Shown here: piece by piece, positions 11,042-29,484 of the stretch
How positions within the stretch are numbered: position 1 is the first letter of the stretch
Layout: each line of letters begins with the position of its first letter
Origin: Thiohalobacter sp.
GTDB taxonomy: Bacteria > Pseudomonadota > Gammaproteobacteria > Thiohalobacterales > Thiohalobacteraceae
Direction: 5' to 3'
NCBI RefSeq assembly: GCF_027000115.1
Contig: NZ_JALTON010000016.1
Location: forward strand, 2,118-66,117
Length of the DNA stretch: 64,000 nt
Translations under genes and position numbers: made by a program
The notes under the pieces: model-generated
What the model saw: only the letters and a program-made list of their open reading frames with translations
Databases searched by the model: none
Told to the model about the DNA's origin: nothing

Positions 11042-12673
11042 ATGTCTTCGTCTTCCGGCACAGCGCCTTTCGAACGACTGGGCAAGGCCTGCGTGCGTTT
11101 CCGCCTGAACCGGACCTACGTCACGGATGGCCGTTTCCTGTTCGTGCCGCCGGACGCCACCGACTTCTGTCCGCTCTGTTTCGAACGCCGCCACCGCGCC
11201 CAGTTTCCTGCCGCACCGGAACTGCACAGCCTCCCACCAGCCGCCCTCGAGCTGGCCAGACAATTCGACAAGGCCGCCAGGCACACGGACGAGTGGGTCG
11301 CCCAGGCACTGAAACCCGGCGCCGCCCGACAGAACTTCCGCCTGTTCGGATTCGAGGACTGCCCCCGCTGCCAGCCGCCACAAGCTGCCCTTTCACCGGC
11401 CGAGGCCGCCGAATACTACGAACTCAAACTCACCGGCCCCTCACCCGATTTCAACCCGGAAAACCTTTCCCGGCGTGTTTTCTCCTTCGGCTTTGCGCAC
11501 CGGGCAATGATGATGAACCGGTCCCGCCTGGACGACCCCCGCCTGACGAACCTCATCGCGGACGGTCATCATGCCCGGGTTCTGTACCGCATGGTGGTGC
11601 CGGACGGCCGTTTCACGGATGCCGCGACCACGGGTTACGACACCGACCCGGCACACGCGAGCCTCAAGGCGCTGATGGAGTACGCGGAGCGCTACGCCTT
11701 CAACCTCCATGTCACACCCGCCCGCGCCGAGCGGGCCGATCCGGAGCTGATCGACGGCTACATGCAACTCTACCGGCGCCCGCTTTCGGCGGCGGAAAAA
11801 AAACAGGCCGAGAACGAGGCCGTCTGGGGAGTCGACCTGTTGCGCGGTACACCCCGCGCCATCCCCCTGCCGTTCCTGTTCAGCTACCAGGCTTTCCGTG
11901 ACGTCAAGCCGACCAGCAGCGGTTATGGCGCCCACGGCAGCTTCGGGGATGCCGTGGCGTCCGGTATTGTGGAACTCGTCGAAAGGGATGCCTTCGTACG
12001 CTTCTGGCACGATCCGGGTCGTGCCCGTCTTCTGGAACTGCCACCGCCACAGGAACAGGCACTGACGTCGGTCGCGGCAGCCACTGCCGCCGCCGCCACC
12101 ATACCACCTCTCACCTCCCGGGCCTTCCTCATTCCCTCGCCCCTGCGGATCCCCGTGGTCCTGCTGGCCATATCCAGCGACCACCCGGAGCAGGGCCCTG
12201 CCCTGTTGTTCGGTTTCGGGGCGGGCTTGACCCTGGACGAGGCAGCGTACGGCGCACTGCGGGAACTCCGCCTGAATGCCATGAACCTGGTCCGTGCCCT
12301 GAAAATGATGCCGGACCTGCTGACGCAACACCCTCCGGCCAAGGTGGACGGTATTGCGCAACGCATGCAGCTCTACGCCTCGGCCGTCCCGCGCCCGCAT
12401 CTGCGCTTCCTCGACGAAGCCGATATGGCCCAGGCGGATGACTGCACGAGCTGCCCGCCTGATCTCGATGCCCTGCTCGACCGTTTCCGGAATGCGGAAA
12501 TCGACATCCACGCCGTTGACTGCACGCCGGAATGCCTGGCCGATCTCGGTGTGCATGTGGTCCGCGCCTTCTCGACCGGACTCTATCCGCTACAGTTCGA
12601 GCGCGAGGATACACTGAGCTTACCTCGAAGCGATGGGTACGCGGGAAAACACCTCTCACACTTCTTCCTGTAG
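11042..12673 (+). CDS. stand-alone YcaO-domain protein (ATP-dependent backbone amide-activating enzyme family)
   Basis: 543 aa. YcaO-like core: ...DPAHASLKALMEYAERYAF...SSGYGAHGSFGDAVASGIVELVERDAFVRFWH...GFGAGLTLDEAAYGALREL. The N-terminal region has CPLC and CPRC pairs. Confidence 0.8.
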   Translation: MSSSSGTAPFERLGKACVRFRLNRTYVTDGRFLFVPPDATDFCPLCFERRHRAQFPAAPELHSLPPAALELARQFDKAARHTDEWVAQALKPGAARQNFRLFGFEDCPRCQPPQAALSPAEAAEYYELKLTGPSPDFNPENLSRRVFSFGFAHRAMMMNRSRLDDPRLTNLIADGHHARVLYRMVVPDGRFTDAATTGYDTDPAHASLKALMEYAERYAFNLHVTPARAERADPELIDGYMQLYRRPLSAAEKKQAENEAVWGVDLLRGTPRAIPLPFLFSYQAFRDVKPTSSGYGAHGSFGDAVASGIVELVERDAFVRFWHDPGRARLLELPPPQEQALTSVAAATAAAATIPPLTSRAFLIPSPLRIPVVLLAISSDHPEQGPALLFGFGAGLTLDEAAYGALRELRLNAMNLVRALKMMPDLLTQHPPAKVDGIAQRMQLYASAVPRPHLRFLDEADMAQADDCTSCPPDLDALLDRFRNAEIDIHAVDCTPECLADLGVHVVRAFSTGLYPLQFEREDTLSLPRSDGYAGKHLSHFFL

Positions 12674-12895
12674 CATAAGGACAAGGTGATATCCCTAATG
12701 ACAGTGCCCCTCGCCCCAGTACGCGAATGGCCGTCGACCAAACCAACGAGGGGTTACTTGGGGTTTTATTTCCCGGGAAATGCCGCCATGTGGAGCCACC
12801 GTCCAACACCACCTGGCACGGATCCATGGGCAGGCACCCAGACCGCGTACGGGACCTTTCAGGCCACAAACCGACAACTTCCTTGAGTCTCACAC

Positions 12896-14011
12896 ATGCT
12901 GTCACCAGAAAGAAATTTCATGCTATCCGGAGGTGCCCTGAAAACCGCGCTTGCCTCGGAGCTGGACGGCCTAAGAAGGGCTGCAAAACGCCCTGATTAC
13001 CGCTCAAATCTGGCTTTGTTGGAAACGTACATCGATGACATGGACAGTGTCGCTCAGGGAGCACCCTTCTCCCGACTCGATGGCATGCCAAGAAACACCC
13101 GTATCATCGACTTTCCTAAGGCGCAGCCCAAGATCAAGTCGCGCCTGTTTTTTTCACATATCGCCGCCTGTATCGTTCTTCTGGAACACCACACTCTTAG
13201 CCCAGAGGAACTACGAGTGGGCATAACAAATCACAAGGCCAATCAAATACTGGACTTGGCAGAACGAAACCCGGAAGTCCGTCGCAACCTGATGCAAAGA
13301 CTCACGGGCATGGATGCTGTTCGAACCAACATGCTCCTGCGGGCCTTGGGCCTCATTACCCGAAAGCCTTCAGCAATACGTCAATTGGGTCTTGGCGTGG
13401 CGAGCGGGGCCAAGGATATCCGTTTTTTTCATTTGTACCCGATACTGGCACGGCAAGCCACCTCCGAGGACCATTACCTGTACACGCTGAACACCATTCA
13501 TCAGGCTGCGCACGACATTGTCATCAATGACCTAGACCCTCGACATGAGGCCGCATTCAAGAATTACGAAAAACTAGGAAGCCCCGCCGTCAAAGGCTAC
13601 ATCTGTGATACGCAAGAGGCCCTCGTAAGACTGGCGGAAGACGATATACCCAAGAGAAACCTGGTAACCATGCTGCGCATGGAACCTGCCATGATAAGAG
13701 ACAGCCGCGAGTTTCTCCGGCACTTATCAAGAACCATCGAGCGTGACTGTGATTTCGTTTTTACGATAGGATCCGGCGACAATCCCGATGCTTACAGGCA
13801 CCGCGTTCGTCGCATCAGCGACCTGTTCGAGAAATTCGATGCAGCGGGCCTCGACCCGGTCCTCATTCGGCTTCACAAAGGCGGCACCATCATGCAACAA
13901 GCGCGCTCCCTCCAGTTCGGCAGTGGCGCTGCCGCAAGCTATGAAATACTGTACTGCCGGCTTGACCCAGAGAAGTTGACGGAATTACTAGTCCGCGACC
14001 AGAAGAAATGA
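12896..14011 (+). CDS. hypothetical protein (no family recognised), lower-GC gene
   Basis: 371-aa ORF in the low-GC insert with coherent codon usage. No motifs recognised. The start is uncertain (alternative Met at 12923). Confidence 0.5.
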   Translation: MLSPERNFMLSGGALKTALASELDGLRRAAKRPDYRSNLALLETYIDDMDSVAQGAPFSRLDGMPRNTRIIDFPKAQPKIKSRLFFSHIAACIVLLEHHTLSPEELRVGITNHKANQILDLAERNPEVRRNLMQRLTGMDAVRTNMLLRALGLITRKPSAIRQLGLGVASGAKDIRFFHLYPILARQATSEDHYLYTLNTIHQAAHDIVINDLDPRHEAAFKNYEKLGSPAVKGYICDTQEALVRLAEDDIPKRNLVTMLRMEPAMIRDSREFLRHLSRTIERDCDFVFTIGSGDNPDAYRHRVRRISDLFEKFDAAGLDPVLIRLHKGGTIMQQARSLQFGSGAAASYEILYCRLDPEKLTELLVRDQKK

Positions 14012-14067
14012 CAGAATCGCTCCCTGCGCAAACAGGGGCATAACACACCTCCCATAGTCAAGATACC

Positions 14068-15930
14068 ATGACCAACAAGCCGATCAGCCACAAGTCGATC
14101 CTTGAACTTATTAACAAAGGCAAACCTCAAAAGGCACTACATCAATGCGAGACTCTGCTACGTCGCTCGAAACATGATCCGAATCTCCATATCATGGCGG
14201 GTTCCCTGAACGCCCAACTGGGCGCATTCTCTGCGGCAATCGACCATTTTCTCGAGGCCAACAGACATCAGCCAAACAACCCCAATACGATCAATAGCCT
14301 GGGAATGGCTTATGCTGCCGACGGGCAGTTCCAGGACGCCGAAACCTGGTTCAGAAAAGCGCTGGAACTTCAGCCCGGGAAACCGGAGATCATGAAAAAC
14401 CTCGCATTCACGCTGGTCAAGCAAGGAAAAACCGGCGAGGCGGAAGCGTTACTGAAGGAAACACTGAAGCTCGCGCCCAACTCGGCAGACGCGCTGCAGC
14501 TTCTGGGTGACATACAACTCGCAGAACGGCTCTATGCGCTGGCCATCGACTCCTACAGTCGCGCCCTGAATTTATACCCAACGCGCCCCCAGCTTCTTTT
14601 ACAGCGCGCAAAGGCACAAATGCTTGCCGGGAAGATCGGCCCGGCGATAGTTGATCTCAAGAAAGCCACTGATATCGACCCCAATTACGCTCAGGCTTAC
14701 ATCACTCTGGGCCACGCCTACATTTCCAACGGGGACCCTGATAATGCGCGCCAGGCATTCGAGAAAGCACTGAACACCCAACCGAATAACCTCGACGCGC
14801 TCCTTGGTATCATCACGCTAGATGAACGCGCAGGAAATCTCGATGCGGCATTCCGAAACCTCCTCCCCCTCACGAAAACCATCAAAAACAATTTGGAACT
14901 GGGCGACATATACGTCCGTCTATGCCACCATTTCGACGCGTGCGAGAAAGCCATCGAATATGCACTCCAAGCTCTGGCTCAGCATGAAGACCTACCCAAA
15001 ATGAAAGGCCAACTCCACTTTTCCCTTGGCCGACACTTTGACCGAATCGGAAATTATGATGCCGCGTTCGAACACTACCAGAGCGCGAACTCGCTCCGCC
15101 CTCAGAACTATGACCCGGAAGAGCACGCCAACCTGGTCAATTCACTGATCACCATATTCAGCCAGGACTTCATTGCATCCGCGCCACGCTCGACCCTATC
15201 CTCGCAGAAGCCTGTATTCGTAGTGGGAATGCCGCGAAGCGGGACGACTCTCACTGAACAGATTCTAGCGAGCCACCCTGATATTTATGGAGTCGGAGAA
15301 CTTACTGATATCGGAGACTTGATCCAATCGATCGCCGTCCTCGGAAAATCCGGCCTAGAGTACCCTTTCAGCCTAAAAGATATTACCAACGAGATCCTGG
15401 ACTTCATCGCCAACAATTACCTTGCGCGACTGCATGAAGTGGCGCCCGACGCGCCGCGGGTTATCGACAAATACCCGGGAAACTACCTGCATCTGGGATT
15501 GATCGCGCTCGCATTTCCTGGCGCCCGGGTCATTCACTGCCGTCGCGACCCACGCGACACCTGCCTGTCCATATACTTCCAGGACTTCAGCGAACAGTTC
15601 CAGTATGCGAACAACCTTGAACACGCGGGACTACATTACAGGCAGTACAACAAACTCATGGAACACTACCGACAGACTCTCGATATCCCAATACTGGAAG
15701 TGTATTATGAGAAGTTGGTAACCAGCCCGGAGCCAACGATCCGAGAAATGATCGAGTTCCTGGAATTGGAATGGAACGACAGTTGCCTGGAGTTCCACAA
15801 AACCCAGCGATTTATAGCGACCCCAAGTTATGACCAAGTCCGCAAACCACTCTACTCGGATTCCATCGGACGTTGGGAGCATTACGAGAAATACATTTCA
15901 CCGTTACTGAATGCGTTGAACATGAAGTAA
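14068..15930 (+). CDS. TPR repeat-containing sulfotransferase (paralog 1, lower-GC copy)
   Basis: 620 aa. N-terminal TPR array. C-terminal PAPS-binding motifs: PVFVVGMPRSGTTLTEQILASHP (5-prime PSB), IHCRRDPRDTCLSIYFQDF, TPSYDQVRKPLYSDSIGRWEHY. Confidence 0.85.
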   Translation: MTNKPISHKSILELINKGKPQKALHQCETLLRRSKHDPNLHIMAGSLNAQLGAFSAAIDHFLEANRHQPNNPNTINSLGMAYAADGQFQDAETWFRKALELQPGKPEIMKNLAFTLVKQGKTGEAEALLKETLKLAPNSADALQLLGDIQLAERLYALAIDSYSRALNLYPTRPQLLLQRAKAQMLAGKIGPAIVDLKKATDIDPNYAQAYITLGHAYISNGDPDNARQAFEKALNTQPNNLDALLGIITLDERAGNLDAAFRNLLPLTKTIKNNLELGDIYVRLCHHFDACEKAIEYALQALAQHEDLPKMKGQLHFSLGRHFDRIGNYDAAFEHYQSANSLRPQNYDPEEHANLVNSLITIFSQDFIASAPRSTLSSQKPVFVVGMPRSGTTLTEQILASHPDIYGVGELTDIGDLIQSIAVLGKSGLEYPFSLKDITNEILDFIANNYLARLHEVAPDAPRVIDKYPGNYLHLGLIALAFPGARVIHCRRDPRDTCLSIYFQDFSEQFQYANNLEHAGLHYRQYNKLMEHYRQTLDIPILEVYYEKLVTSPEPTIREMIEFLELEWNDSCLEFHKTQRFIATPSYDQVRKPLYSDSIGRWEHYEKYISPLLNALNMK

Positions 15931-16061: not shown

Positions 16062-17060
16062 CTAGCCGCCTTTCAATTGCTGACTACTTACATAGGCAAT
16101 CGCCTCATCAATACGCCCGGCATCAAAATCGGACAAATCCGGATCCTCAGCCAACATGTTGAGCAGTTTCAGACAGCCTTCCCGAAGACCCACCACATGA
16201 CTAAACTTGGCAAGCACCAAGGCAGCCTCCACATGCGGTCTTTGTCGCTCCAATGATGGCTTGATGAGCTCGAACGCCTTCTGCAAATCACCTTGCGCAT
16301 AAAACACGTCGGCCCGCTGAATCCGATACTTCTCATTATCCGAGTCCCGCGCCAAGGCCTTTTCAATGGCCATCAATGCCTCTTCGTTCAGCCCCCAGGC
16401 AACAAATACTTTCGAGGCGAAATACTGGATTTCCGCAATATCCACTCGCGATACGATATCTTTAAGCAGCAGGACACCGTCATCATCCAAATCCTTTTGC
16501 TGCAGACAAAGACACCAGCCGATGATCAAGCTCTCATCACGGTTGCCCAGCACCAGCGCCTTGCGGTAAGCATCTTCGGCGGAAGCAACATCGCCGGTCC
16601 TGGCATAAAGATACCCCAGGTAACCCCACACATCCGGCTGACCATCATCAAGCGCGACCGCCCGCCTAAAGGCCTCCAGCGCCTCCTCCTCGCGCCCCGA
16701 TCTCAGCAATGCTTCCCCATGGGCACAGACTGCCCCGATATCCTCCGCATCAAGCTCCACGGCTTTGGAAAAGTGTTCCACGGCCTCGGCCAGATTACCA
16801 AGGGCCGAGCTAATCTGCCCAAGCACCATATACAAATCGGGATTATTTGGATCCAGACTTCTGGATTTCTCGATAAAATTCATCCCATCGGATACATGAC
16901 CCAGCTCGACCGCCAGTGACCCGCGCATCAACCAGGCCTCGGCGCAGTCAGGAACATCCTCGGTAATCTTCTGGTAGGCATTCAGGGCACCTGGCAGATC
17001 ACCCTGATCGCATAAAGTCGATGCTTCCGCGAGCTTCGTCGCCAAATCGATCATAACCAA
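16062..17060 (-). CDS. TPR repeat protein
   Basis: 332 aa of consecutive 34-residue TPR-like units (...AEAWLMRGSLAVELGH..., ...PDLYMVLGQISSALGNLAEAVEHFSKAVELD...). Confidence 0.8.
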   Translation of the reverse strand: MVMIDLATKLAEASTLCDQGDLPGALNAYQKITEDVPDCAEAWLMRGSLAVELGHVSDGMNFIEKSRSLDPNNPDLYMVLGQISSALGNLAEAVEHFSKAVELDAEDIGAVCAHGEALLRSGREEEALEAFRRAVALDDGQPDVWGYLGYLYARTGDVASAEDAYRKALVLGNRDESLIIGWCLCLQQKDLDDDGVLLLKDIVSRVDIAEIQYFASKVFVAWGLNEEALMAIEKALARDSDNEKYRIQRADVFYAQGDLQKAFELIKPSLERQRPHVEAALVLAKFSHVVGLREGCLKLLNMLAEDPDLSDFDAGRIDEAIAYVSSQQLKGG

Positions 17061-19537: not shown

Positions 19538-19580
19538 GGCACGCGGCCAACAACCTGACGCAGTCTCCGGACTGCGGAAA

Positions 19581-19607
19581 ACGGGCGCTCAGGCGCCCGT
19601 TTTTTTT
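19581..19607 (+). terminator. Rho-independent terminator
   Basis: acgggcgc-tcag-gcgcccgt stem-loop followed by a T7 run. Confidence 0.75.
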
Positions 19608-19629
19608 GTTTTCTGGTAAATTACAGACA

Positions 19630-21429: not shown

Positions 21430-21432
21430 GAC

Positions 21433-23394
21433 ATGAAGGCGCCCCCGAAAAAGGCACAGGAACTGTTCCGCAAGGCAACCGCGGCCCTGGAGCAGGGCAA
21501 CCCCAGGGACGCGCTGGCGCAGTTCGAGAAAATCGAGAAAATCTGGGAAAGGAACCCGGACATCTGTTACCTCAAGGGCCTGGCGCTGGGCCGCCTGGGC
21601 CGCATACACGAAGTGGCGGAGGTGTCGCGCGAGGGCCTGAAACTGGCGCCCGACCACCACGGCTGCCTGTGCAATCTGGCCAATGCCCAGATGACCCTGC
21701 AGGAGACGGAAGCGGCGCTTGGCAATTACGAGCGGGCGCTGGCCCTCAAACCCGGCGATCCCAACCTGCTCAACAACTACGCGCGCGCGCTCGCACTGCT
21801 GGGACGCCGCGACGAGGCGGTCGAAATCTACCGGCGCGTGGTCCAGACGGCGCCGAACTATGCGCCCGCCCATGTCTCGCTGGGCCGGGCCCATTACGCC
21901 GCCGGCCAGCTCGCGCAGGCAGCGCAAGCCTTCTTCCGCGCCTTGCGCCTCGACCCCCGCCAGTACGAGGCGCATCTCGGCCTGGGGCGGCTGCTGGAAA
22001 ACCAGGGCGGCCTCGAGCCTTCGCGCCGCCACTACGAACAGGCGCTGAAGCTCTTTCCCGATTGCATCGACGCCCGGGTGGGGCTCGCCACCCTGTGCCG
22101 TTACGAGGGGGATTTCGAACGCGCCATGACCTATCTCGAAGAGGCGGCGGAACGCGCAGGCGCGGACAACCCTTCCCTGCTCGCCGGCAAGGCCAATCTG
22201 CTCGAATACTGGGGCAAGCGCGAGGAGGCCCACGCCATCGTCACCGCCCTGGCCGAGCGCGGGCAGCTCACGCCCACTGCGGTCACCGTCCATGCCCGGC
22301 TCTGCCACCACTTCGATGACTGCGACAGGGCCGAGGCACATTTGAAGGATATGCTGGCGGCCCCGGCCACCGATGAGGCGGAACGCTACTCGCTGTACTT
22401 CGCGGCAGGCAGCATGATGGACAGGCAGGGTCGCTACCCGGAGGCCTTCGAGTACTACCGCAAAGGCAACGAGGCGGTGAACATCCGTTGCGACCGCGCC
22501 CGCTTCACGGCCCACGTGGACGCCCTCATCGAGACCTTTTCCAGGGAGAATCTGGCGCATTTCGCACGCGCGGAAACGGGCAGCGACCGCCCCATATTCA
22601 TCGTCGGCATGCCGCGTTCCGGCACCTCGCTCACCGAGCAGATCCTGGCCAGCCACCCCGAGGTTGCGGGCGGCGGCGAGCTGGACACCCTGGCCCGGGT
22701 CGCCAACATGCTGGCCGACACGCCCTCCGCGCCCTTCGGCGAGAACAGCCCGCTGACGGGCGACGCCTACCTGAAACGGCTTCCCGCAGCGGGCAGCCTG
22801 CGGCTGACCGAGCTGGCCTCGAAATACCTCGACCATCTGGACGGCATCGACGCCTCGGCCCGCCATGTCACGGACAAGATGCCGCACAATTTCCTGCGCC
22901 TGGGCCTGATCCAGTTGCTCTTTCCCGAGGCCAGGATCATCCACTGCCGGCGCAATCCCCTGGACACCTGCCTGTCCATCTATTTCCAGCAGTTCATCTG
23001 GAGCCACGACTATGCCTGGGACCTGTCGGACCTGGGCTTCCACTACAGCGAGTACTGGCGCCTCATGCAGCACTGGGAACGGACCCTGGACATCCCCATC
23101 CTCACCATCGACTACGAGGACATGGTCGCGGACCAGGCGGCCGCGTCGCGCAGGCTCCTGGAGTTCTGCGGCCTGGAGTGGCGCGAGGACGTGCTGGAGT
23201 TCCACCGCAGCGAGCGGGCGGTCACGACCGCGAGCTACGACCAGGTCCGGCGCCCCATCTACAAGAGTTCACGGGAGCGCTGGCGCAACTACGCGGACTG
23301 CCTCGCGCCCCTGGTCGAGGCCCTGTCCGACGAGGTGCGGGCGCGCATTCCGGGGCTCGAAGCCGTCCCCGCGGCGCGGCATCAGGCGCCCTGA
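21433..23394 (+). CDS. TPR repeat-containing sulfotransferase (paralog 3)
   Basis: 653 aa, starting 4 nt after paralog 2. TPR array, then RPIFIVGMPRSGTSLTEQILASHPEVAGGGEL, IHCRRNPLDTCLSIYFQQF, TASYDQVRRPIYKSSRERWRNY. Confidence 0.85.
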   Translation: MKAPPKKAQELFRKATAALEQGNPRDALAQFEKIEKIWERNPDICYLKGLALGRLGRIHEVAEVSREGLKLAPDHHGCLCNLANAQMTLQETEAALGNYERALALKPGDPNLLNNYARALALLGRRDEAVEIYRRVVQTAPNYAPAHVSLGRAHYAAGQLAQAAQAFFRALRLDPRQYEAHLGLGRLLENQGGLEPSRRHYEQALKLFPDCIDARVGLATLCRYEGDFERAMTYLEEAAERAGADNPSLLAGKANLLEYWGKREEAHAIVTALAERGQLTPTAVTVHARLCHHFDDCDRAEAHLKDMLAAPATDEAERYSLYFAAGSMMDRQGRYPEAFEYYRKGNEAVNIRCDRARFTAHVDALIETFSRENLAHFARAETGSDRPIFIVGMPRSGTSLTEQILASHPEVAGGGELDTLARVANMLADTPSAPFGENSPLTGDAYLKRLPAAGSLRLTELASKYLDHLDGIDASARHVTDKMPHNFLRLGLIQLLFPEARIIHCRRNPLDTCLSIYFQQFIWSHDYAWDLSDLGFHYSEYWRLMQHWERTLDIPILTIDYEDMVADQAAASRRLLEFCGLEWREDVLEFHRSERAVTTASYDQVRRPIYKSSRERWRNYADCLAPLVEALSDEVRARIPGLEAVPAARHQAP

Positions 23395-25274
23395 TCCCGG
23401 CACCAGGCCTGCCAGCGCGCCCGCCAGGCCTGCTCTATCCCCCGCGCCAGCCGTGCCGCATCACACAGCGGGGACCGCAGCAGCGCATCGCGCAGTCCGG
23501 CGCGCAGCCCGGCCAGCCTCTCCGTACCCGTCCCGGCCAGCTCCGCGGCAATGGCGACGTAGCGCGCGGGATCGTCCGCCACCCATTCCGGCCGCCCGAT
23601 GGCGGCCAGCAGCGAGGCGCCCACCCGGCTGCGGTGGACCCGGCCGGCCAGGCTCACCACCGGAACCCCCATGAGCAGGGCCTCGCAGGTGGTGGTGGTA
23701 CCGTTGTAGGGAAAGGTATCCAGGGCGATGTCCAGGCGCCGGTAGAGCGCCAGGTGCGCCTGGCGTCCCGGCGTGTGTCCCAGCAGCTCCAGCCGCGCGG
23801 TTTCGATGCCACGACCCCGGAACCGCGCCTCGACCATGGCCCGGACCTCCGGATCGGTGAGCGCGGGGCTCTTCAGCAGCAGGCGCGAACCCGGGACGGC
23901 CGCGAGCAGGTCCGCCCAGGCGGCGACCACCGACGGACCGACCTTGGACAGGTTGTTGAACGAACCGAAGGTGACAAAGCCGTTGTCGGCCGCCGGTGGC
24001 GGCGACGGGTCCGGCACCTCCCGGGGGGGCCGATAGGCGAGGAAGGGTGCCGGAACGCGGACCAGTTCTTCCGTGCACCAGCGTTCGCTGCCGGGCGGAT
24101 CCGTGATCTCGTCGACGATCCGGCCGTCGATCGCGGGCAGCCCCGTGGTATTGGGGTAGCCGAGGTAGGTGAACTGCAGCGGCGCGGGGCGCAGCGCGAA
24201 CACGGGCAGGCTGTTGTGCGCGGTGTGGCCGGCGAGATCGACCAGGATGTCGATGCCGTCGGCCGCCACGCGTCCGGCGAGGGCAGACGGGGCCTCGCCC
24301 GCGCAGGCCCGCCAGTGGTCCGCCGCGGCCCTCAGCGCCTGGCTCACGGCATCCTCCCTCGGCGAGGTGGAGTAGCAGAAGATCTCAAATCCGCCCCGGT
24401 CGTGCGCCTCCAGCAATCCCTGGAGGAAACTGGCCACGGAATGGGCCCTGAGGTCCGGCGACAGGTACCCGATCCGCAGCCTGCGGTCCGGGTCGGGCGC
24501 ACGGGGCGGGCAGAGGGGGCCGCCCGAGGCCGACGCCAGCCGTTCGCCCCATGTCCGGTGGGCCTGCAACAGCTCGGCCTCGTCCAGCCCCTCGAGGTAA
24601 TTGAGCGCCAGCAGGTAGCCCGAATGCGCCGGTGCCGCGGGCGGCAGCGTCCGGCAGGCCTCGCGGTGCAGCTCGACGGCCTCGCCGGCGTGCCCCAGCA
24701 CCAGCAGGGCGGAGGCCAGTCCGCTCTGCACCGGCAGCCGGGGATCCCGCCGTCTCGCCTCCTGGTAGGCGGCCACCGCCCGCGAGGGGTAGCCGCGTGC
24801 GCTCTCGACCGCGGCCAGGTTGGCCCACAGGCGCGCCTCCCCCGGCGTGGCGGACACCGCGCGCCGGTAGACCTGCTCCGCCTCGTCCAGTTCGTTGCGG
24901 GCGATCAGGATCTGTCCCAGCAGGTCCAGGCCCTCGCCGTGGGCCGGAGCCACCGACAGCGCCTCGCGAACGGCGCCCAGCGCCTCGTCCGTCGCGCCGC
25001 AACGCCAGAGCACGCGCGCCACGTTGGTCTTCAGCGCGGGCTCGGCCGCCCCGGCCGCAAGCGCACGCCGGGCATGGCGCAGCGCCTCGGCACGGTTCCC
25101 CAGCTCGGCCTCCACGTGCGCGAGCAGCCCCCAGGCAAGCGCCGGCGGCCGGGCGCCGCGAACCAGCCGTTGCAGGAGTACGCGGGCCTCCACGAAAGCG
25201 CCGCCCGCGACCAGCTCGCGCGCCTTCTGCAGCCTGGCACCGGCCTTGGCGGCCCCCGGACGGACCCCGTTCAT
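23382..25274 (-). CDS. TPR repeat-containing GT41-type glycosyltransferase (O-GlcNAc transferase / SPINDLY-like)
   Basis: Start at MNGVRPGAAK (25274). TPR array, then RIGYLSPDLRAHSVASFLQGLLEAHDRGGFEIFCYS, FGSFNNLSKVGPSVVAAWADLL, LDTFPYNGTTTTCEALLMGVPVVSL, the typical COG3914/GT41 catalytic region. The 3-prime end overlaps the convergent gene by 13 nt. Confidence 0.8.
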   Translation of the reverse strand: MNGVRPGAAKAGARLQKARELVAGGAFVEARVLLQRLVRGARPPALAWGLLAHVEAELGNRAEALRHARRALAAGAAEPALKTNVARVLWRCGATDEALGAVREALSVAPAHGEGLDLLGQILIARNELDEAEQVYRRAVSATPGEARLWANLAAVESARGYPSRAVAAYQEARRRDPRLPVQSGLASALLVLGHAGEAVELHREACRTLPPAAPAHSGYLLALNYLEGLDEAELLQAHRTWGERLASASGGPLCPPRAPDPDRRLRIGYLSPDLRAHSVASFLQGLLEAHDRGGFEIFCYSTSPREDAVSQALRAAADHWRACAGEAPSALAGRVAADGIDILVDLAGHTAHNSLPVFALRPAPLQFTYLGYPNTTGLPAIDGRIVDEITDPPGSERWCTEELVRVPAPFLAYRPPREVPDPSPPPAADNGFVTFGSFNNLSKVGPSVVAAWADLLAAVPGSRLLLKSPALTDPEVRAMVEARFRGRGIETARLELLGHTPGRQAHLALYRRLDIALDTFPYNGTTTTCEALLMGVPVVSLAGRVHRSRVGASLLAAIGRPEWVADDPARYVAIAAELAGTGTERLAGLRAGLRDALLRSPLCDAARLARGIEQAWRARWQAWCRDQGA

Positions 25275-25584: not shown

Positions 25585-27165
25585 ATGGTCAAGCGCATAA
25601 CAATAGTGGGTGGGGGATCGGCGGGCTGGATGACGGCCGCGCACCTGGCGCAGACGCTGCCCGGGGTCGAGATCACCCTGGTCGAATCACCGAACGTCCC
25701 CATCATCGGCGTCGGCGAATCCACCGTGCCGCCCATCGTCGATTTCATGGCCAGCCTGGGGCTCAAGGAACAGGACTGGATGCCGGCCTGCAAGGCCACC
25801 TACAAGAGCTCCATCTGCTTCCGCAACTTCCATGGTACCGACGGCAAGACCATGTGGTTCCCCTTTTCCGGGACCTGGTCCGTTGCCGGACGGCCCGCCG
25901 CGCAGCACTGGCTCTATCGATATTTCACCGATCCGGCCTTCAACGATCGCTTTTCCATCTACGACTATTGCACCCTGGTCCCCGAAATCTGCCGGCAGGG
26001 CAAGACGGTGCGCTCCCTCCCCAATGCCACCTACGCCTATCACCTGGATGCGATCGCGCTGGGCGAACGACTCAAGGTCCATGCCAAGGGCAAGGGCGTG
26101 AAACACGTCCAGGCGCTGATCACCCAGGTCACCCGGCGCGAGGACGGCGCGATCGACCGGCTGGAACTGGACAACGGCGAGGCCCTGACCGCGGACCTGT
26201 TCGTCGACTGCTCCGGCTTCCGCTCCATGCTGCTTGCCGGCACCCTCGAGGAGCCCTTCGAGTACTACACGGATGCCCTGTTCAACGACAAGGCCATCGC
26301 CCTGCGCCTGCCCTTCGACCCGGAACGCCGGGAGGCGGAGATGGTTTCCTACACCCTCTGCACGGCCCTGTCTTCCGGCTGGGTCTGGACCATCCCCCTG
26401 TACAATCGTCTGGGCACGGGGTATGTCTACAGCAGCCGCCACCTCGAGCCCGACCAGGCCGAAACCGAGTTCCGCGGATTCCTGAAAGAACTCCTGGGCG
26501 ACGACCGTGCCGACGGGCTGGAGGCCAAGCACCTGGATATCCGGGTCGGCAAGCATCGGCGCACCTGGGTGAAGAACTGCGTCGCGATCGGACTGTCGGC
26601 CGGCTTCGTGGAGCCGCTGGAATCCACCGGGCTGCAGATCGTCCAGAGCCAGGTCCACCTGCTCGCCGAGACGCTGCGCGCCCGCGGCGGCTTCAACATC
26701 GCTGACGTCAACATCTACAACAAGAGCATCCGCGACCTCCTCGACAGCATCAAGGACTTCCTCGTGTGTCACTATGCGCTGACCGAGCGCGAGGACACCC
26801 CTTACTGGAAGGACGTCAAGTACACCACCGAGATCTCCGACGCGCTTGCCGAGAAGCTCACCCTGGCTCGCAGTGTGCTGCCCGCACCCGGCAACCTGCA
26901 GCGCTTCGATACCGGGGGCGCACTCGCGGGCTTCGGGTTCAACGACGGCTGGTACTACATCCTGGTGGGCATGGGCCACCTGCCCTTCGCAGTCGGGAAG
27001 CAGCGGGAGATGGGCGTCGGCATCTTCGATGCCGTGTTCCAGAAACACGCGGCGGAAGCACAGCAGATGGCGGACCGGCTCAAGGCCGAGCATCCCAGGA
27101 TCGGGCAGCTCCCGAGCCATTACCGGTTCCTGCGTGACAACATCTACGGGGGCGCGGAGGAATAG
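25585..27165 (+). CDS. flavin-dependent halogenase (tryptophan halogenase family)
   Basis: 526 aa. FAD motif ITIVGGGSAGWMTA, family motif SGWVWTIPLYNRLGTGYVY (WxWxIP), conserved Lys context ACKATYKSSICF. Confidence 0.85.
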   Translation: MVKRITIVGGGSAGWMTAAHLAQTLPGVEITLVESPNVPIIGVGESTVPPIVDFMASLGLKEQDWMPACKATYKSSICFRNFHGTDGKTMWFPFSGTWSVAGRPAAQHWLYRYFTDPAFNDRFSIYDYCTLVPEICRQGKTVRSLPNATYAYHLDAIALGERLKVHAKGKGVKHVQALITQVTRREDGAIDRLELDNGEALTADLFVDCSGFRSMLLAGTLEEPFEYYTDALFNDKAIALRLPFDPERREAEMVSYTLCTALSSGWVWTIPLYNRLGTGYVYSSRHLEPDQAETEFRGFLKELLGDDRADGLEAKHLDIRVGKHRRTWVKNCVAIGLSAGFVEPLESTGLQIVQSQVHLLAETLRARGGFNIADVNIYNKSIRDLLDSIKDFLVCHYALTEREDTPYWKDVKYTTEISDALAEKLTLARSVLPAPGNLQRFDTGGALAGFGFNDGWYYILVGMGHLPFAVGKQREMGVGIFDAVFQKHAAEAQQMADRLKAEHPRIGQLPSHYRFLRDNIYGGAEE

Positions 27166-27217
27166 CACCGCCGGGGCTCTCCGGCGCGCGCGTTCCAGGA
27201 TTCCGGGTTCTGTCGGT

Positions 27218-28549
27218 TCAGGCTTCGGGGCGGGTTACGCCGTGCGCCTCCAATATGTCCCGCAGTTCCCCCAGCATCGGCGCGTAGCGCTTCCACTTGC
27301 CGATCGAAGCCGCCGACAGCGGTTTCCGTACCTGGGTATCGCTCGGCGTATTGATCTCCCGCTCTGTTTCATGGAAGCGCAGGCAGGCCGGATCGAAGGG
27401 CAGCCCGCAGAAATCCAGCAGGGCGGCGATCTCGCCGTCGGGATCGGCGACCAGCCGTTCGTAGCAGAGCCGGTGAATCCTGCCGGGCAGGACCTGCTCC
27501 CAGTGCGCCATCAGCCGCCGGTAAAGGACATAGACGCGGCCGAGATCGCCCCAGTCGTGGGCATAGGCGTGGCTGTCCGACAGCGGCTGCTGGTAGATGG
27601 ACAGGCAGTTGTCCAGGGGATCGCGGCTGCAGTGAACGATCGGGGCCTGCGGAAACAGGAGCGCGATCAACCCGACCAGGCGGAAATTCATCGGCGTGGT
27701 GTCGGTGAAACAGGCCGCCTCGGCGACATGGGCGGGAAGCTTGTCCAGGTAGCGGGCCGCCAGCGCTTCCAGTCGAGCCTCGCCCAGATGAAGCACGTTT
27801 TCGGCCAGCGGCCTGCCGGTCGACTGTCCCAACTCGCGGACGATTTCCTCCAGGGCGATGATCTCGCCCCCGCCCGCCACCTGCGGATGGCTGGCGAGGA
27901 TCTGCTCGGTGAGCGTGGTGCCGGAGCGCGGCATGCCGACCACAAAGATGGGGCGCCGCCCGGGCACCGCAGTCGGCGCCGCCCGGCCCAGCAACTCCGG
28001 CGTGAAGGCATGGATCAGCCCCTCGATGTGCTGCTCGTAGGCGCCGGCGTCGAACACCGCGCCGGCCTGCCGCGCCAGCCCATGGACCCGGCCCCACCAG
28101 GCCATGGCCTGCTCCGCATTCCCTTTGCGGTCGAAGACCGAAGCCATCGCGAAACCCAGAAACACGCGTTCGTTCGCCGGCACGTCGGAGCGGGCGAACA
28201 GACGCGCCATAACCTCGAGTTCGCGGTCCGAAAAGTCGTGGACGCGCATGTGCGCCAGGTGAAAATAGGCCATGGGCGTGGCCGGGCGCAGCCGGATGAC
28301 CTCATGGAAACACCGGGCCGCCTGCGCAAACCGCCCCCGCCTGCGCAGGACCAGGCCGAGATTCATCAGCGTGGGCACGTGCCCCTTTTCCAGCTTCAGG
28401 ATACGCCGGTAGTCGCGTTCCGCGGCCTCCAGCCTTCCGGCCTGCTGTGCGCCGACCGCCTGCCGGAACCATTTTTCCAGTTTGTCTCGCAACGCAAGCT
28501 CCCCTGCATCGGAATACAACGCGGCGCGGATTTTACCGCGTGCCACCAC
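27218..28549 (-). CDS. TPR repeat-containing sulfotransferase (paralog 4, short TPR region)
   Basis: 443 aa: RPIFVVGMPRSGTTLTEQILASHPQVAGGGEI, VHCSRDPLDNCLSIYQQPL, TPSDTQVRKPLSAASIGKWKRY. Confidence 0.85.
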   Translation of the reverse strand: MVARGKIRAALYSDAGELALRDKLEKWFRQAVGAQQAGRLEAAERDYRRILKLEKGHVPTLMNLGLVLRRRGRFAQAARCFHEVIRLRPATPMAYFHLAHMRVHDFSDRELEVMARLFARSDVPANERVFLGFAMASVFDRKGNAEQAMAWWGRVHGLARQAGAVFDAGAYEQHIEGLIHAFTPELLGRAAPTAVPGRRPIFVVGMPRSGTTLTEQILASHPQVAGGGEIIALEEIVRELGQSTGRPLAENVLHLGEARLEALAARYLDKLPAHVAEAACFTDTTPMNFRLVGLIALLFPQAPIVHCSRDPLDNCLSIYQQPLSDSHAYAHDWGDLGRVYVLYRRLMAHWEQVLPGRIHRLCYERLVADPDGEIAALLDFCGLPFDPACLRFHETEREINTPSDTQVRKPLSAASIGKWKRYAPMLGELRDILEAHGVTRPEA

Positions 28550-28590
28550 TTCAGTAGACTCGGCGATCCCCCGGCATCGCGACCCCGGCC

Positions 28591-29484
28591 ATGAACGACT
28601 CGAATGCAGTCCACGCGCTGCGCGCCAATCCTGCCACCTGGATTTCCATCCTCGCCATGGGCGGGTTGCTGACGGCGCTGAGCCTGGTGCCGGACCCGCT
28701 CGCCCTGGCGCGCGACTATGGCCAGTTCCTCGCCCTCGGGCTGGCCGGGGCCATCGCCGCCAATTCGACCGGGGCGGGCGGCGGCATCGTCTTCATCCCC
28801 GCGTTCACCTCGCTGGGCATCGGCGGCGAAAACGCGCTCGCCACCAGCCTGGCCATCCAGTGCTTCGGCATGACTGCCGGCAGCATCGCCTGGCTGGTGG
28901 CCCTGAAACGCCATGAATACGGGGGCCGCCACGCGGTCTCGCTGGTGCGCAGGCTGTTGCTGATCACCGCGCCCCCGGCGGCAGCGGGCATGCTGCTCGC
29001 GCAGTATCTGGTTCCGGCCCCGCCGCTGGCAGTGGCGACCATCTTCAAGTATTTCTCCATCCTGTTCGGCCTGCTGCTCCTGTACGGCACGCTGCGCAAG
29101 CCGCAGCCGCACCCGCACGCCATCCACCGGCTCCACCGGCGCCATGTCGTGCCCATCGTCGTCTGCGCCCTGGCCGGTGGCATGGTCACGGCCTGGATCT
29201 CGATCGGCGTCGGCGAGTGGCTGGCCCTGCTGCTTTTCTTTCTGGGCTACCCCACGATGATTTCGGTCTGCATCGCCGTGTGCATCTCCGCGCTCACAGT
29301 GTGGGTCGGCATCGGTTATCATGCCGGTACCGATGGCCACATCGTCTGGCCCATCGTGCTCTTCGCCGCGCCGGCGGCCATGGTCGGCGGCAGCGTCGCG
29401 CGTTACCTTGCCCGCCGGCTCGGACCCGTTCGTCTCAAGATCTTCTTCAGTACCTGGATTCTTGCGACCGGCCTCGTGATGTAG
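28591..29484 (+). CDS. TauE/SafE (DUF81) family anion permease, sulfite-exporter-like
   Basis: 297 aa and polytopic. Gly-rich motif NSTGAGGGIVFIPAFTSLGI is typical of the family. Confidence 0.7.
   Translation: MNDSNAVHALRANPATWISILAMGGLLTALSLVPDPLALARDYGQFLALGLAGAIAANSTGAGGGIVFIPAFTSLGIGGENALATSLAIQCFGMTAGSIAWLVALKRHEYGGRHAVSLVRRLLLITAPPAAAGMLLAQYLVPAPPLAVATIFKYFSILFGLLLLYGTLRKPQPHPHAIHRLHRRHVVPIVVCALAGGMVTAWISIGVGEWLALLLFFLGYPTMISVCIAVCISALTVWVGIGYHAGTDGHIVWPIVLFAAPAAMVGGSVARYLARRLGPVRLKIFFSTWILATGLVM

Follow-up and report, generated by a model that had tools for sequence, protein, structure and literature searches.

The DNA analysed here, a 64-kb stretch from Thiohalobacter sp. referred to as the window, contains a segment that we read as one copy of a recurrent, modular cytoplasmic toolkit for tailoring surface proteins before their export, a reading to which we give a probability of about 0.5. 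Since the same gene combination recurs in other bacteria, the enzyme set probably decorates the exported surface proteins encoded beside it. Its likely substrates would be PEP/VPLPA-CTERM cargo proteins, with the small beta-domain proteins of the FDW family, and the FDW domain heading the large surface protein beside the FadL-like protein, as the best candidates.

Pfam and NCBIfam searches identified nine enzyme/adaptor genes between positions 11042 and 28549 (Table 1), all at the positions and in the families given by the original prediction. The motifs that it quoted were also recovered: three in each of the four sulfotransferase paralogues, together with GGGSAGW, GWVWTIPL and HxD...H...RxS. 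All of the modifying enzymes have hydrophilic N-termini and no signal peptide, whereas the cargo proteins carry Sec signal peptides. The lack of NRPS, PKS, carrier-protein, nucleotide-sugar and polysaccharide glycosyltransferase genes was borne out, as the ORFs scanned at 3-40 kb gave no match to these or to GT2/GT4, Wzx or Wzy families (NCBIfam only for the cargo ORFs at 3376-4768 and 7916-10924); no exosortase gene was found in the 64-kb window. The 371-aa protein of unknown family had no BLAST match in the related loci fetched, and phmmer over the first 85 loci was also blank. The EPS export genes lie where they had been predicted, all scoring just under the NCBIfam equivalog cut-offs. The modifying enzymes adjoin both the cargo and these export genes, a location that a glycan substrate fits equally well.

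Table 1. Features of the Thiohalobacter sp. window discussed in the text (positions within the window).
Feature	Position	Strand	Basis or remark
Tagged cargo, VPVPAAVWLFGSGL...RR, signal peptide	3376..4101	-	Distant FDW beta-domain family member
Tagged cargo, VPLPAAVWLFGSGL	4124..4768	-	Tag search
Protein, 301 aa, lipoprotein-like N-terminus	4868..5773	-	No Pfam/NCBIfam match; conserved partner of the subtilase
Secreted S8 subtilase, PPC and TSP3 repeats	5770..8007	-	Pfam
Beta-propeller (YVTN-repeat) cargo, VPVPGAVWLFGSGL tag	7916..9139	-	Likely start near 9019
Large cargo, VPVPAAVWLFGSGL tag	9161..10924	-	Likely start near 10528
Stand-alone YcaO, Cys-rich N-terminal extension	11042..12673	+	PF02624, 9e-39
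Unknown-family protein, 371 aa	12896..14011	+	No match in Pfam or NCBIfam
TPR-sulfotransferase 1	14068..15930	+	Pfam
TPR-only protein	16062..17060	-	Pfam; 2OG oxygenase gene just upstream
2OG-Fe(II) oxygenase, prolyl-4-hydroxylase type	17380..18042	-	2OG-FeII_Oxy_3 PF13640, 6.9e-15
Small FDW-family cargo, VPVPAAVWLMGSGL...RRRRR tag	18950..19537	+	189 aa if the start is 18968
Strong intrinsic terminator, gap between cargo gene and sulfotransferase 2	19576..19605	+	13-bp stem, then T-run
TPR-sulfotransferase 2	19606..21429	+	Likely ATG at 19630; orthologues ~590 aa
TPR-sulfotransferase 3	21433..23394	+	Orthologues ~630 aa, kept in tandem with sulfotransferase 2
TPR + GT41 glycosyltransferase, SPINDLY/OGT type	23382..25274 (or to 25523)	-	Glyco_transf_41 PF13844, 1e-50
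Trp-halogenase-family flavin-dependent halogenase	25585..27165	+	PF04820, 5.8e-121
TPR-sulfotransferase 4	27218..28549	-	Short TPR array, deep-branching
TauE/SafE (TSUP) membrane protein	28591..29484	+	PF01925, 9e-22
FadL/Toluene_X-type outer-membrane beta-barrel	29740..31230	+	Pfam
Large surface protein: N-terminal FDW domain, choice-of-anchor U domain, Cys-containing C-terminal anchor	31307..32719	+	
XrtA-type EPS export module: Poly_export, TIGR03016-like OMP, chain-length determinant, tyrosine kinase, ATPase	32859..39480	+	

The four TPR-sulfotransferases match Sulfotransfer_3 with E values of 5.6e-43 to 4e-48 (Pfam), and their sulfotransferase domains are only 44-53% identical to one another, implying that the copies are old and not recent. 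As the original prediction had envisaged, the solved structures closest to these domains were the protein-tyrosine sulfotransferases TPST1/2 (1e-14), whereas polyketide and small-molecule sulfotransferases matched at 5e-7 or worse. The residues aligned to TPST2 R78, E99, K158 and S285 are kept in sulfotransferases 1-3, and sulfotransferase 4 lacks the Lys aligning with K158. In the tree, sulfotransferase 1 groups with sulfotransferases of L026 (Thiohalobacter thiocyanaticus) and L044, while sulfotransferases 2 and 3 fall into separate orthologue clades retained as a tandem pair. For all seven members of the sulfotransferase 2 clade the gene immediately upstream encodes FDW-type cargo or, in L006, a tagged protein; FDW-type cargo genes likewise precede the sulfotransferases of ~589 aa in L098 and L099. 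Relatives of these enzymes also lie within 100-200 bp of flagellin genes in four loci, spread over three distant lineages of bacteria, an adjacency that may serve as an independent pointer to protein substrates; flagellin is bound by the TPR domain of FlmG (PMC7591256).

With respect to the cargo, six tagged proteins had been predicted; the P[VL]P[AG]AVWL...RR tag is present on five ORFs, those so labelled in Table 1 and the beta-propeller, large and small FDW-family cargo, and a sixth was not found, the CTERM tag being absent from the 301-aa protein and the subtilase. The large surface protein shares the FDW domain, 70% identical to that of the small FDW cargo, and differs in its C-terminal anchor. 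The small FDW cargo, our main candidate substrate, combines a Sec signal peptide with an all-beta domain (pLDDT > 90 in the AF2 model), matches TIGR03370 with 28.3 bits against a cut-off of 25.35, and in cargo-anchored loci its gene always comes immediately before the sulfotransferase pair. All close members of the FDW family share an invariant Tyr, which has no acidic context and is not retained in the more distant ones of L008 and L044; the cargo at 3376..4101, whose floc_PepA match is weak, aligns with the family including this Tyr and the FDW motif. A homologue of the large cargo is held by the Desulfocapsa locus L042. The subtilase, a candidate processing enzyme, has a 54% identical homologue in L095, and an S8 gene is also present in L098; homologues of the 301-aa protein occur in L095 (49% identity, adjoining the subtilase) and L097 (42%).

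The order cargo gene, terminator, ~590-aa sulfotransferase and ~630-aa sulfotransferase was found in the window and in six of the seven informative cargo-anchored loci (L087, L088, which is the same as L003, L089, L090, L098 and L099); the contig of the seventh, L086, holds the first sulfotransferase only. The cargo-terminator order is also kept, with one sulfotransferase or GT41, in L008 and L044. An equivalent hairpin and T-run occupies the same site in nine other loci; with a strong terminator lying between cargo gene and sulfotransferases in every locus, the two may be transcribed separately. The sulfotransferase pair plus cargo is the core recurring most often. Around it the GT41, large surface protein, FadL-like and Poly_export/OMP/chain-length genes co-occur with cargo and sulfotransferases, wholly or partly, in Sulfurifustis, Thiogranum, HyVt-541, Thiohalobacter thiocyanaticus, a betaproteobacterium and Desulfocapsa. 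The FadL-like protein is the commonest non-enzyme partner (9 of 83 sulfotransferase-anchored loci plus L092, L096, L097 and L098), and in L092 and L097 the TauE/SafE gene again neighbours the genes for the FadL-like protein and the large surface protein. The predicted linkage to CTERM cargo and to export genes of the XrtA type was recovered, limited to a sub-lineage, since tagged cargo was present in only 7 of the 80 genome loci with relatives of the window sulfotransferases.

The inclusion of the YcaO, halogenase, 2OG oxygenase and TPR-only genes in the system depended on the anchor: judged by the sulfotransferase-anchored sample they seem incidental, but they recur when YcaO is the anchor. 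YcaO adjoins parts of the gene set in all six of the other contexts inspected, and L095 is a near-replica of the window, with the subtilase, the 301-aa protein, four tagged cargo genes, two GT41, YcaO, a TPR-methyltransferase, a halogenase, a 2OG oxygenase, a TPR-only protein and one sulfotransferase. The YcaO family itself is rare (16 clusters among 5.8 billion proteins), and the window protein scores under the TOMM SagD cut-off. The 2OG oxygenase is closest, with a weak match (2.8e-6), to the structures of OGFOD1, Tpa1 and PHD2, and has homologues in L094 and L095 (35% identity) and a weaker one in L093 (26%); we read the TPR-only protein as its adaptor, and L095 keeps the order 2OG oxygenase, TPR-only. 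Partner enzymes in other genomes comprise TPR-methyltransferases, PhyH and SET proteins.

The GT41, found in 10 of 83 sulfotransferase-anchored loci plus L093 and L095, is closest among solved structures to SPINDLY (3e-115), followed by the Thermobaculum OGT (2e-87), human OGT (1e-71) and XcOGT (7e-39). The closest solved relatives of the sulfotransferases, the GT41 and, weakly, the 2OG oxygenase are thus all protein modifiers; in a cyanobacterium, pilin glycosylation needs the GT41 homologue Ogt (PMC9306852). These data bear on a different reading, which we consider unlikely: that the sulfotransferases, and perhaps the GT41, act at the cytoplasmic face on the exopolysaccharide of the locus or on its lipid-linked repeat unit, their TPR arrays docking to the XrtA-type machine and the cargo lying nearby through a common matrix regulon. 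The enzymes indeed stand between cargo and Poly_export, chain-length, kinase and ATPase genes in the window, L008 and L009, and in L002 beside Poly_export, the only export gene on that locus; in L099 a PAPS synthase, which we count in favour of the cargo reading as well, adjoins the cargo-sulfotransferase triad, together with a GDP-mannose-dehydratase-like gene and PrsT/K/R-like regulators. PF13469 sulfotransferases are also present in cyanobacterial sulfated-EPS clusters (PMC8205485), so that family membership alone does not fix the substrate, and sludge EPS is rich in sulfated glycoconjugates whose enzymes are unidentified (PMC10483923). However, the GT41 is the sole glycosyltransferase of the locus, which has no Wzx or Wzy, in contrast to the synechan cluster with eight glycosyltransferases and both of these proteins (PMC8205485), and all the solved GT41 relatives found (SPINDLY, OGT and HMW1C-type N-glycosyltransferases) act on protein. 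Moreover, the order cargo-sulfotransferase-sulfotransferase is kept in L087, L089 and L090 with no EPS gene in reach on the contigs, the flagellin genes noted above adjoin sulfotransferase relatives, and the other recurrent partners (P4H-like, SET, YcaO and methyltransferases) belong to protein- or peptide-directed families.

FadL proteins transport hydrophobic compounds, and those of the TauE/TSUP family sulfur-containing anions. These roles would suit a small molecule or ribosomal peptide, such as a tryptophan derivative bearing halogen, hydroxyl and sulfate groups or a RiPP that has escaped recognition, made or tailored at the locus and either employed on the cell surface or moved into or out of the cell via these proteins. 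The halogenase, which keeps the GxGxxG, WxWxIP, Lys and EPLES motifs and has a 44% identical homologue in L095, is closest to the free-tryptophan halogenases and VirX1 (solved structures VirX1, Th-Hal, PyrH, RebH and PrnA), a YcaO is present, and neighbourhoods with halogenase and dioxygenase were predicted by Iyer et al. (2010) to yield amino-acid-derived metabolites (PMC2938197). We nevertheless hold such a product to be very improbable: besides the lack of NRPS, PKS and carrier proteins, no conserved precursor-like small ORF was seen (those of 66 aa after YcaO and of 50 aa in L095 have no counterpart elsewhere), nor an E1-like or TfuA partner, a peptidase or an ABC exporter; the most frequent core includes neither halogenase nor YcaO, and the TPR fusions and GT41 indicate protein clients.

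OGT-type enzymes have a regulatory role in eukaryotes, and the TPR enzymes could instead form a regulatory layer on the exosortase/EPS machinery, its regulators or cytoplasmic proteins, with no tailoring of cargo. A PrsK/PrsR-like two-component system adjoins the sulfotransferase pair in L099, the enzyme-dense loci L093 and L094 showed no tagged cargo within 8 kb, and most sulfotransferase relatives have no conserved neighbour. This seems to us quite improbable, as the strict adjacency is to one cargo family and to flagellin, not to regulators, and to our knowledge neither sulfation nor halogenation of cytoplasmic proteins is a regulatory mark.

Together, gene linkage and homology partly support the multi-enzyme tailoring of surface proteins put forward originally, its alternative of EPS or glycan sulfation is weakened, and its peptide option found no support. 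In the tailoring that we favour, the cargo precursor would be synthesised in the cytoplasm and, still unfolded, be bound by TPR arrays, either part of the enzyme itself or supplied by a neighbouring gene, which would direct most of the modifying enzymes, not all, onto the chain. The TPST-like sulfotransferases would then move sulfate from PAPS and the SPINDLY/OGT-like GT41 add sugar, with further marks at this locus from the P4H-like 2OG oxygenase and its TPR partner, the flavin halogenase and YcaO, for which other genomes would substitute TPR-methyltransferases, PhyH or SET enzymes. We infer both this order of steps and the modified residues, which may be Tyr, Ser/Thr or a protein-linked glycan, and the FadL-like and TauE-like proteins presumably have roles in the system. 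The decorated precursor would be exported via Sec, retained by its C-terminal helix and processed by an exosortase encoded elsewhere, to enter the EPS or floc matrix. Such a route requires sulfated or glycosylated chains to cross Sec. If true, protein decoration would be a step of biofilm-matrix assembly so far undescribed.

We consider it about an even bet (probability near 0.5), judging from sequence comparison, that the locus encodes a modular cytoplasmic toolkit for tailoring surface and matrix proteins before their export. The TPR arrays would capture unfolded precursors of surface and matrix proteins; the captured precursors would be sulfated, glycosylated and optionally further marked, and would then undergo Sec export followed by exosortase processing. 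That the enzymes instead play a regulatory role on other proteins appeared to us quite improbable.

Housekeeping genes on both sides delimit a locus of about 36 kb: accB and aroQ up to about 3.2 kb on the left, identified by reading translations, and vanZ, cysQ, nudE and then a type II secretion cluster from 39.7 kb on the right. The gene order given in the table is based on GC3-guided ORF choice and on Pfam and NCBIfam scans. Every enzyme listed in the original prediction was recovered at its position with strong scores, and the family assignments held in HMM searches against Pfam; the absence of NRPS, PKS, carrier-protein, nucleotide-sugar and polysaccharide-glycosyltransferase genes was likewise upheld for the ORFs scanned (3-40 kb of the window). 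The 371-aa protein matched no family in Pfam or NCBIfam and had no homologue in any fetched locus. GC content was 0.53-0.58 in the block spanning this protein, sulfotransferase 1, the TPR-only protein and the 2OG oxygenase, versus about 0.65 in its flanks, and this block may have entered the locus independently of the other genes. The cysQ gene is conveniently placed about 600 bp past the ATPase gene, and its product hydrolyses PAP, the by-product of sulfotransferases; with the adjacent nudE it probably forms the usual housekeeping pair.

Coordinates of the features discussed, in the window and in loci from other genomes or metagenomes (L handles)
Sequence	Positions	Strand	Feature
Window	3376-10924	minus	Cargo genes, interleaved with S8/TSP3 subtilase and 301-aa protein
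Window	4868-8007		S8/TSP3 subtilase and ~300-aa protein
Window	11042-12673	plus	YcaO
Window	11042-11640		N-terminal extension of YcaO
Window	12000-18000		Low-GC block
Window	12686-12886		Small ORFs after YcaO
Window	12896-14011	plus	371-aa protein
Window	14068-15930	plus	TPR-sulfotransferase 1
Window	16062-17060	minus	TPR-only protein
Window	17380-18042	minus	2OG oxygenase
Window	18042-18950		Spacer with small ORFs
Window	18801-18815		Sigma-54 consensus match
Window	18950-19537		Small cargo gene (FDW family)
Window	19576-19605		Hairpin and T-run 3' of small cargo gene
Window	19606/19630-21429	plus	TPR-sulfotransferase 2
Window	21433-23394	plus	TPR-sulfotransferase 3
Window	23382-25274	minus	TPR-GT41
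Window	25585-27165	plus	Halogenase
Window	27218-28549	minus	TPR-sulfotransferase 4
Window			TauE-like protein
Window			FadL-like outer-membrane protein
Window	31307-32719	plus	Large surface protein
Window	32859-39480	plus	Poly_export, TIGR03016-like outer-membrane protein, chain-length determinant, tyrosine kinase, ATPase (XrtA type)
Window	40101-41448		Region of cysQ, next to nudE
L002	19265-21385		Large surface protein orthologue
L003	4303-5967		Large surface protein orthologue
L007	8668-11304		Large surface protein orthologue
L009	13585-16269		Large surface protein orthologue
L098	5419-7218		Large surface protein orthologue
L095	45-3009		Subtilase and ~300-aa protein
L098	17809-20528		S8 gene, then 293-aa ORF
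L097	9740-10615		~300-aa protein only
L099	1-9435		PAPS synthase and accompanying genes, upstream of cargo-sulfotransferase-sulfotransferase triad
L022	7379-12538		Flagellin locus
L035	6845-12388		Flagellin locus
L040	223-4055		Flagellin locus
L046	670-3191		Flagellin locus

The motifs by which the sulfotransferases had been recognized were found in all four paralogues. Among these, GMPRSGT[ST]L, whose PRSGT is the 5'-phosphosulfate-binding loop, and [TS]..[YD].QVR.P, the 3'-phosphate segment, occur in 4/4 paralogues and align with TPST1/2. The four domains are ancient paralogues, since their pairwise identity is only 44-53%. The best solved relatives of the domain were protein-tyrosine sulfotransferases (1e-14 to 5e-11), followed by a polyketide sulfotransferase (5e-7); hence, the proposed kinship with TPST-type enzymes was borne out among solved structures, with TPST nearest (1e-14) and others at 5e-7 or worse. 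In an alignment of ten sequences (A1), R26, E47 and S223 were invariant and K104 nearly so. By pairwise HMMER alignment, we take R26, E47, K104 and S223 to correspond to R78, E99, K158 and S285 of TPST2. By homology to TPST, tyrosine could be the sulfate acceptor; the close cargo family has a single invariant Tyr, which lies in no acidic context and is lost in distant members. Sulfotransferase 4 has a short TPR array and lies on a deep branch away from the cargo-linked clades. It carries Thr at the position of the TPST2 catalytic Lys158 (TDTTP versus TDKMP), and may be inactive or work differently. The family comprises more than 7000 clusters at 90% identity and ranges over Gamma-, Beta- and Alphaproteobacteria, Planctomycetota, Desulfobacterota, Verrucomicrobiota and other phyla. 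We know of no characterized TPR-fused sulfotransferase, and none was found in the literature searched; NCBIfam models neither the sulfotransferase nor the GT41 catalytic domain and gave only generic TPR matches.

The remaining enzymes include several related to protein-modifying families. In the GT41 enzyme the TPR array precedes the catalytic domain (PF13844 at 1e-50, plus TPR matches), and the nearest solved structure was SPINDLY (3e-115 over residues 192-710), followed by bacterial and human OGT; candidate sugar donors are UDP-GlcNAc and GDP-fucose. The 2OG enzyme matched weakly the solved structures of the protein prolyl hydroxylases OGFOD1, Tpa1 and PHD2. The halogenase is a typical member of the tryptophan-halogenase family (PF04820 at 5.8e-121) with intact motifs (GGGSAGW, GWVWTIPL, ATYKSSICF and EPLEST), its catalytic Lys and Glu being assigned by motif reading. 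A signal peptide was found in none of the enzymes; therefore, all the modification chemistry is placed in the cytoplasm, where PAPS and nucleotide sugars are available. The YcaO domain scored 120.6, versus a TIGR03604 cut-off of 219.25, and had no solved relative at E <= 0.01. Its N-terminal extension of about 190 residues is zinc-ribbon-like, with CPLC and CPRC motifs, and appears to be kept, since the homologues are full-length (94-100% query coverage). A small-molecule or RiPP pathway is very improbable, as it would be one without precursor and partner genes: neither an E1-like/Ocin-ThiF nor a TfuA partner family was found among the YcaO neighbours in the window and in the other YcaO contexts. 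The 'unrecognized peptide' once suggested as substrate was not supported either, as a conserved small ORF that could encode a RiPP precursor was sought and none was found; the small ORFs after YcaO and in the 18042-18950 spacer, and a 50-aa ORF in the YcaO-bearing locus L095, have no counterparts elsewhere.

As for the putative clients, five ORFs with P[VL]P[AG]AVWL…RR, and not six as first counted, have a signal peptide and, at the C-terminus, a PEP-like motif, a TM helix and a basic cluster. The product of the small cargo gene scored above the cut-off of TIGR03370 (VPLPA-CTERM). It belongs to a family, here called FDW, of Sec-exported, CTERM-tagged proteins of about 170-220 aa whose domain also heads proteins of 500-1660 aa and occurs in 256 representative clusters at E <= 1e-10. 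An AlphaFold model of this domain is all-beta (pLDDT >90); the fold search with the cargo model gave no significant PDB neighbour (best, hemophilin, E = 0.29, TM 0.36), with only weak matches to barrels of the lipocalin or nitrobindin type. Three features of the close family show little or no variation, namely the Tyr, the Trp of FDW and the motif F-P-G-Q-x-P; they could be acceptors, or else may be conserved for structural reasons alone.

The N-terminal domain of the large surface protein is 70% identical to the small cargo, and its C-terminal anchor contains a Cys. In this protein and its orthologues (L002, L003, L007, L009 and L098), the C-terminus has G-C-[AST]-[LI]-[AS], followed after a spacer by a TM helix and an Arg cluster, and so represents a sorting signal of another type. 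In L002, L003 and L098, but not in the window, the orthologous gene adjoins one for a CPBP/Rce1-like intramembrane protease; the logic is like that of the JDVT/MYXO-CTERM and CPBP pairing, but without the DP motif. Among the cargo genes of the window are those for an S8/TSP3 subtilase and a protein of about 300 aa. Both recur beside cargo genes in L095, an S8 gene with a 293-aa ORF after it lies in L098, and L097 has just the ~300-aa protein; the two may be a processing protease and its partner.

A hairpin followed by a T-run lies 3' of the small cargo gene in the window and in L003, L008, L044, L086, L087, L089, L090, L098 and L099; that is, a strong intrinsic terminator separates the cargo gene from the first sulfotransferase in 10/10 loci examined. 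The small cargo gene is probably transcribed by itself and at a high level, and expression of the sulfotransferases probably depends on read-through or on a separate promoter. Matches to the sigma-54 consensus were not enriched (72 versus 82 expected), and a single well-placed one lies upstream of the cargo gene.

We examined the conservation of this arrangement with three anchors; the samples were small and partly redundant (L088 is the same as L003, and L087 and L098 are close relatives), and gene calls in the fetched loci were crude, either ORF-based or, for look-ups, those of the source collection. With the sulfotransferase domain as anchor (83 loci, 80 from genomes), the only recurrent neighbours, apart from tagged cargo, were GT41 (10 loci), a TPR-type methyltransferase (10) and a FadL-like protein (9). 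A loose PEP-CTERM detector, positive in 22 of the 83 loci but giving 16 matches on shuffled tails, was replaced by a strict pattern that matched 0/8399 shuffled tails and found tagged cargo in 7/80 genome loci. In this sample the predicted co-localization of sulfotransferases with CTERM cargo and XrtA-type genes was limited to these few loci, where it took the form of a common layout, whole or partial: cargo, one to three sulfotransferases, GT41, large surface protein, FadL-like protein, Poly_export, outer-membrane protein and chain-length determinant. Its carriers were Sulfurifustis variabilis, Thiogranum, the HyVt-541 MAG, Thiohalobacter thiocyanaticus, a betaproteobacterium and Desulfocapsa.

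With the small cargo domain as anchor, for which a narrower-alignment metagenome scan gave 6 loci, seven loci had sufficient flanking sequence. In 7/7 of them, the gene that comes after the cargo gene in the same orientation, within 130-300 bp, encodes a sulfotransferase of about 590 aa; in 6/7 another sulfotransferase gene (about 630 aa) comes next, the contig of L086 ending after the first. Sulfotransferases 2 and 3 of the window fell in these two orthologue clades in a neighbour-joining tree (no support values). In L099, a trifunctional PAPS synthase (ATP-sulfurylase and APS kinase) is encoded directly upstream of the triad, together with a GDP-mannose-dehydratase-like gene, a large TPR protein, a GAF histidine kinase and a sigma-54 response regulator (PrsT/K/R-like).

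The halogenase, 2OG oxygenase and YcaO had been counted as part of the cluster. This failed with the sulfotransferase anchor (0/83 loci; a phmmer re-check of that sample found halogenase, 2OG, YcaO and TauE absent except for one 2OG match) and held with YcaO, a rare family of 16 clusters, as anchor: all six other contexts inspected lay in the same system. In L095, which nearly replicates the window, we found the 301-aa protein and the subtilase, four tagged cargo genes, two GT41, YcaO, a TPR-methyltransferase, the halogenase (44% identity), the 2OG oxygenase (35%), the TPR-only protein and a sulfotransferase. L093 and L094 have additional PhyH, SET and 2OG enzymes; in L092 and L097, YcaO is accompanied by a TauE-like protein, a surface protein with FDW at its head and a FadL-like protein; in L096 a related large surface protein and a FadL-like protein were present, the TauE-like gene and an FDW match not being seen. 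These contexts overturned the idea that the halogenase, 2OG, YcaO and TauE genes are one-off passengers. Being absent from the first sample and recurrent with YcaO, the halogenase, 2OG, TPR-only, YcaO and TauE-like proteins are sporadic but genuine accessories, not core components. Chance co-location of unrelated genes was rejected because the gene set recurs.

Relatives of the sulfotransferases were also encoded 100-200 bp from a flagellin gene in 4/80 genome loci, from a member of the Phycisphaeraceae, another Phycisphaerae MAG, Ferruginivarius and a member of the Desulfohalobiaceae, that is, in three distant lineages (Phycisphaerae, Rhodospirillales and Desulfohalobiaceae). One of these loci has the order flagellin, sulfotransferase, sulfotransferase, and another has an added methyltransferase. 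Flagellin resembles the cargo in being a structural protein that is abundant and exported. The adjacency suggests that flagellin or its glycan is sulfated, a link absent from the literature searched. Flagellin is modified in the cytoplasm by the TPR-docked enzyme FlmG (PMC7591256), and a cyanobacterial GT41 is required for pilin glycosylation (PMC9306852).

Sulfation of the EPS or of another glycan would be compatible with the position of the locus, and enzymes of PF13469 do occur in cyanobacterial EPS clusters (PMC8205485). In the synechan (xss) cluster of Synechocystis, as here, sulfotransferases are found in an EPS/biofilm locus with co-polymerase and export components; that cluster, however, has 8 glycosyltransferases plus Wzx and Wzy, and TPR fusion was not described for its sulfotransferases (PMC8205485). 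By contrast, our locus has cargo protein genes and only the export and co-polymerase genes; GT2/GT4 glycosyltransferases, the flippase Wzx and the polymerase Wzy were not found in the ORFs scanned (3-40 kb of the window). We regard glycan sulfation as unlikely, as it leaves unexplained these missing functions, the protein-directed partner families and the adjacency to flagellin.

Protein tailoring before export has partial precedents. RaxX of Xanthomonas oryzae is reportedly a secreted peptide that is Tyr-sulfated by RaxST, a cytoplasmic TPST-like sulfotransferase encoded beside it. Our locus shares with that system a TPST-like, PAPS-type enzyme and adjacent genes for enzyme and putative substrate, and cytoplasmic modification before export would apply to both; however, RaxST is a single enzyme with no TPR array acting on a 60-residue RiPP-like precursor with type I export, whereas here 2-4 TPR-fused paralogues and further enzyme classes accompany Sec/exosortase-type proteins of 170-590 aa. 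A cytoplasmic reaction before export is also common to FlmG-flagellin of Caulobacter, where an N-terminal TPR domain docks the client and a C-terminal catalytic domain modifies it (PMC7591256), to Ogt-PilA, with a GT41 of Synechococcus (PMC9306852), and to HMW1C-HMW1 (GT41). These are single-enzyme glycosylations of flagellin, pilin or adhesin, while in our case the TPR architecture extends to sulfotransferases, and elsewhere to methyltransferases, and the clients would be exosortase cargo.

The tripartite C-terminal signals, the single-gene cargo units and the accompanying chain-length, kinase, ATPase and outer-membrane genes resemble the PEP-CTERM/exosortase XrtA system (Haft 2006, PMC1569441). 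The XrtA markers TIGR03007, 03018, 03015 and 03016 were the best matches but fell below their curated equivalog cut-offs (270.8/278.9, 204.6/230.7, 299.6/324.5 and 47/90.9, respectively), and no exosortase or PrsKRT gene was detected among the scanned ORFs of the 64-kb window, which covered most candidate ORFs. Haft's descriptions of exosortase mention none of the enzyme classes found here (sulfotransferase, GT41, halogenase, YcaO) and identify no enzyme that modifies the cargo, and glycosylation of PEP-CTERM cargo was only suggested, from Ser/Thr-rich regions (bioRxiv 10.1101/2023.06.07.544157). Co-clustering of 2OG oxygenases, tryptophan-halogenase-type enzymes and sulfotransferases was described by Iyer, Abhiman, de Souza and Aravind in 2010, who predicted hydroxylation and subsequent sulfation of the secreted proteins encoded alongside (PMC2938197). 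Their neighbourhoods are built around TonB receptors accompanied by SapC, around NRPS, or around collagen-like and tail-collar proteins, all of them missing here, and their description lacks the TPR fusion, GT41, YcaO and PEP-CTERM cargo. In the literature searched, a single paper mentioned both PEP-CTERM and sulfotransferase, each of them once. Tailoring enzymes encoded beside an exported substrate are thus a known kind, and the enzyme-cargo set predicted here appears to be new. To our knowledge, no modifying enzyme has so far been assigned to PEP-CTERM/exosortase cargo.

More tentatively, the locus may belong to an unrecognized mix-and-match toolkit for matrix-protein maturation in bacteria, decorating abundant structural proteins before export. 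Its enzymes, all cytoplasmic, would be TPST-like, SPINDLY/OGT-like and P4H-like proteins, methyltransferases, halogenases and YcaO, most of them carrying or borrowing a TPR adaptor. In sulfur-cycling Proteobacteria and Desulfobacterota its clients would be exosortase cargo, and in Planctomycetota, Rhodospirillales and Desulfohalobiaceae they would be flagellins. If so, this would be a bacterial counterpart to the sulfation, hydroxylation and O-glycosylation of eukaryotic extracellular-matrix proteins, and the first protein sulfation known beyond Xanthomonas RaxX.

The fixed order of cargo, sulfotransferase and sulfotransferase defines a candidate enzyme-substrate pair, and two carriers, Thiohalobacter thiocyanaticus and Sulfurifustis variabilis, are in culture. 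Sulfated glycoconjugates are abundant in the matrices of environmental biofilms and granular sludge, where the responsible sulfotransferases were not found (PMC10483923). If tailoring of surface and matrix proteins by this locus is true, protein sulfation in bacteria would be far from confined to RaxX, its one example so far, and the enzymes would provide handles on the surface chemistry of flocs and biofilms.
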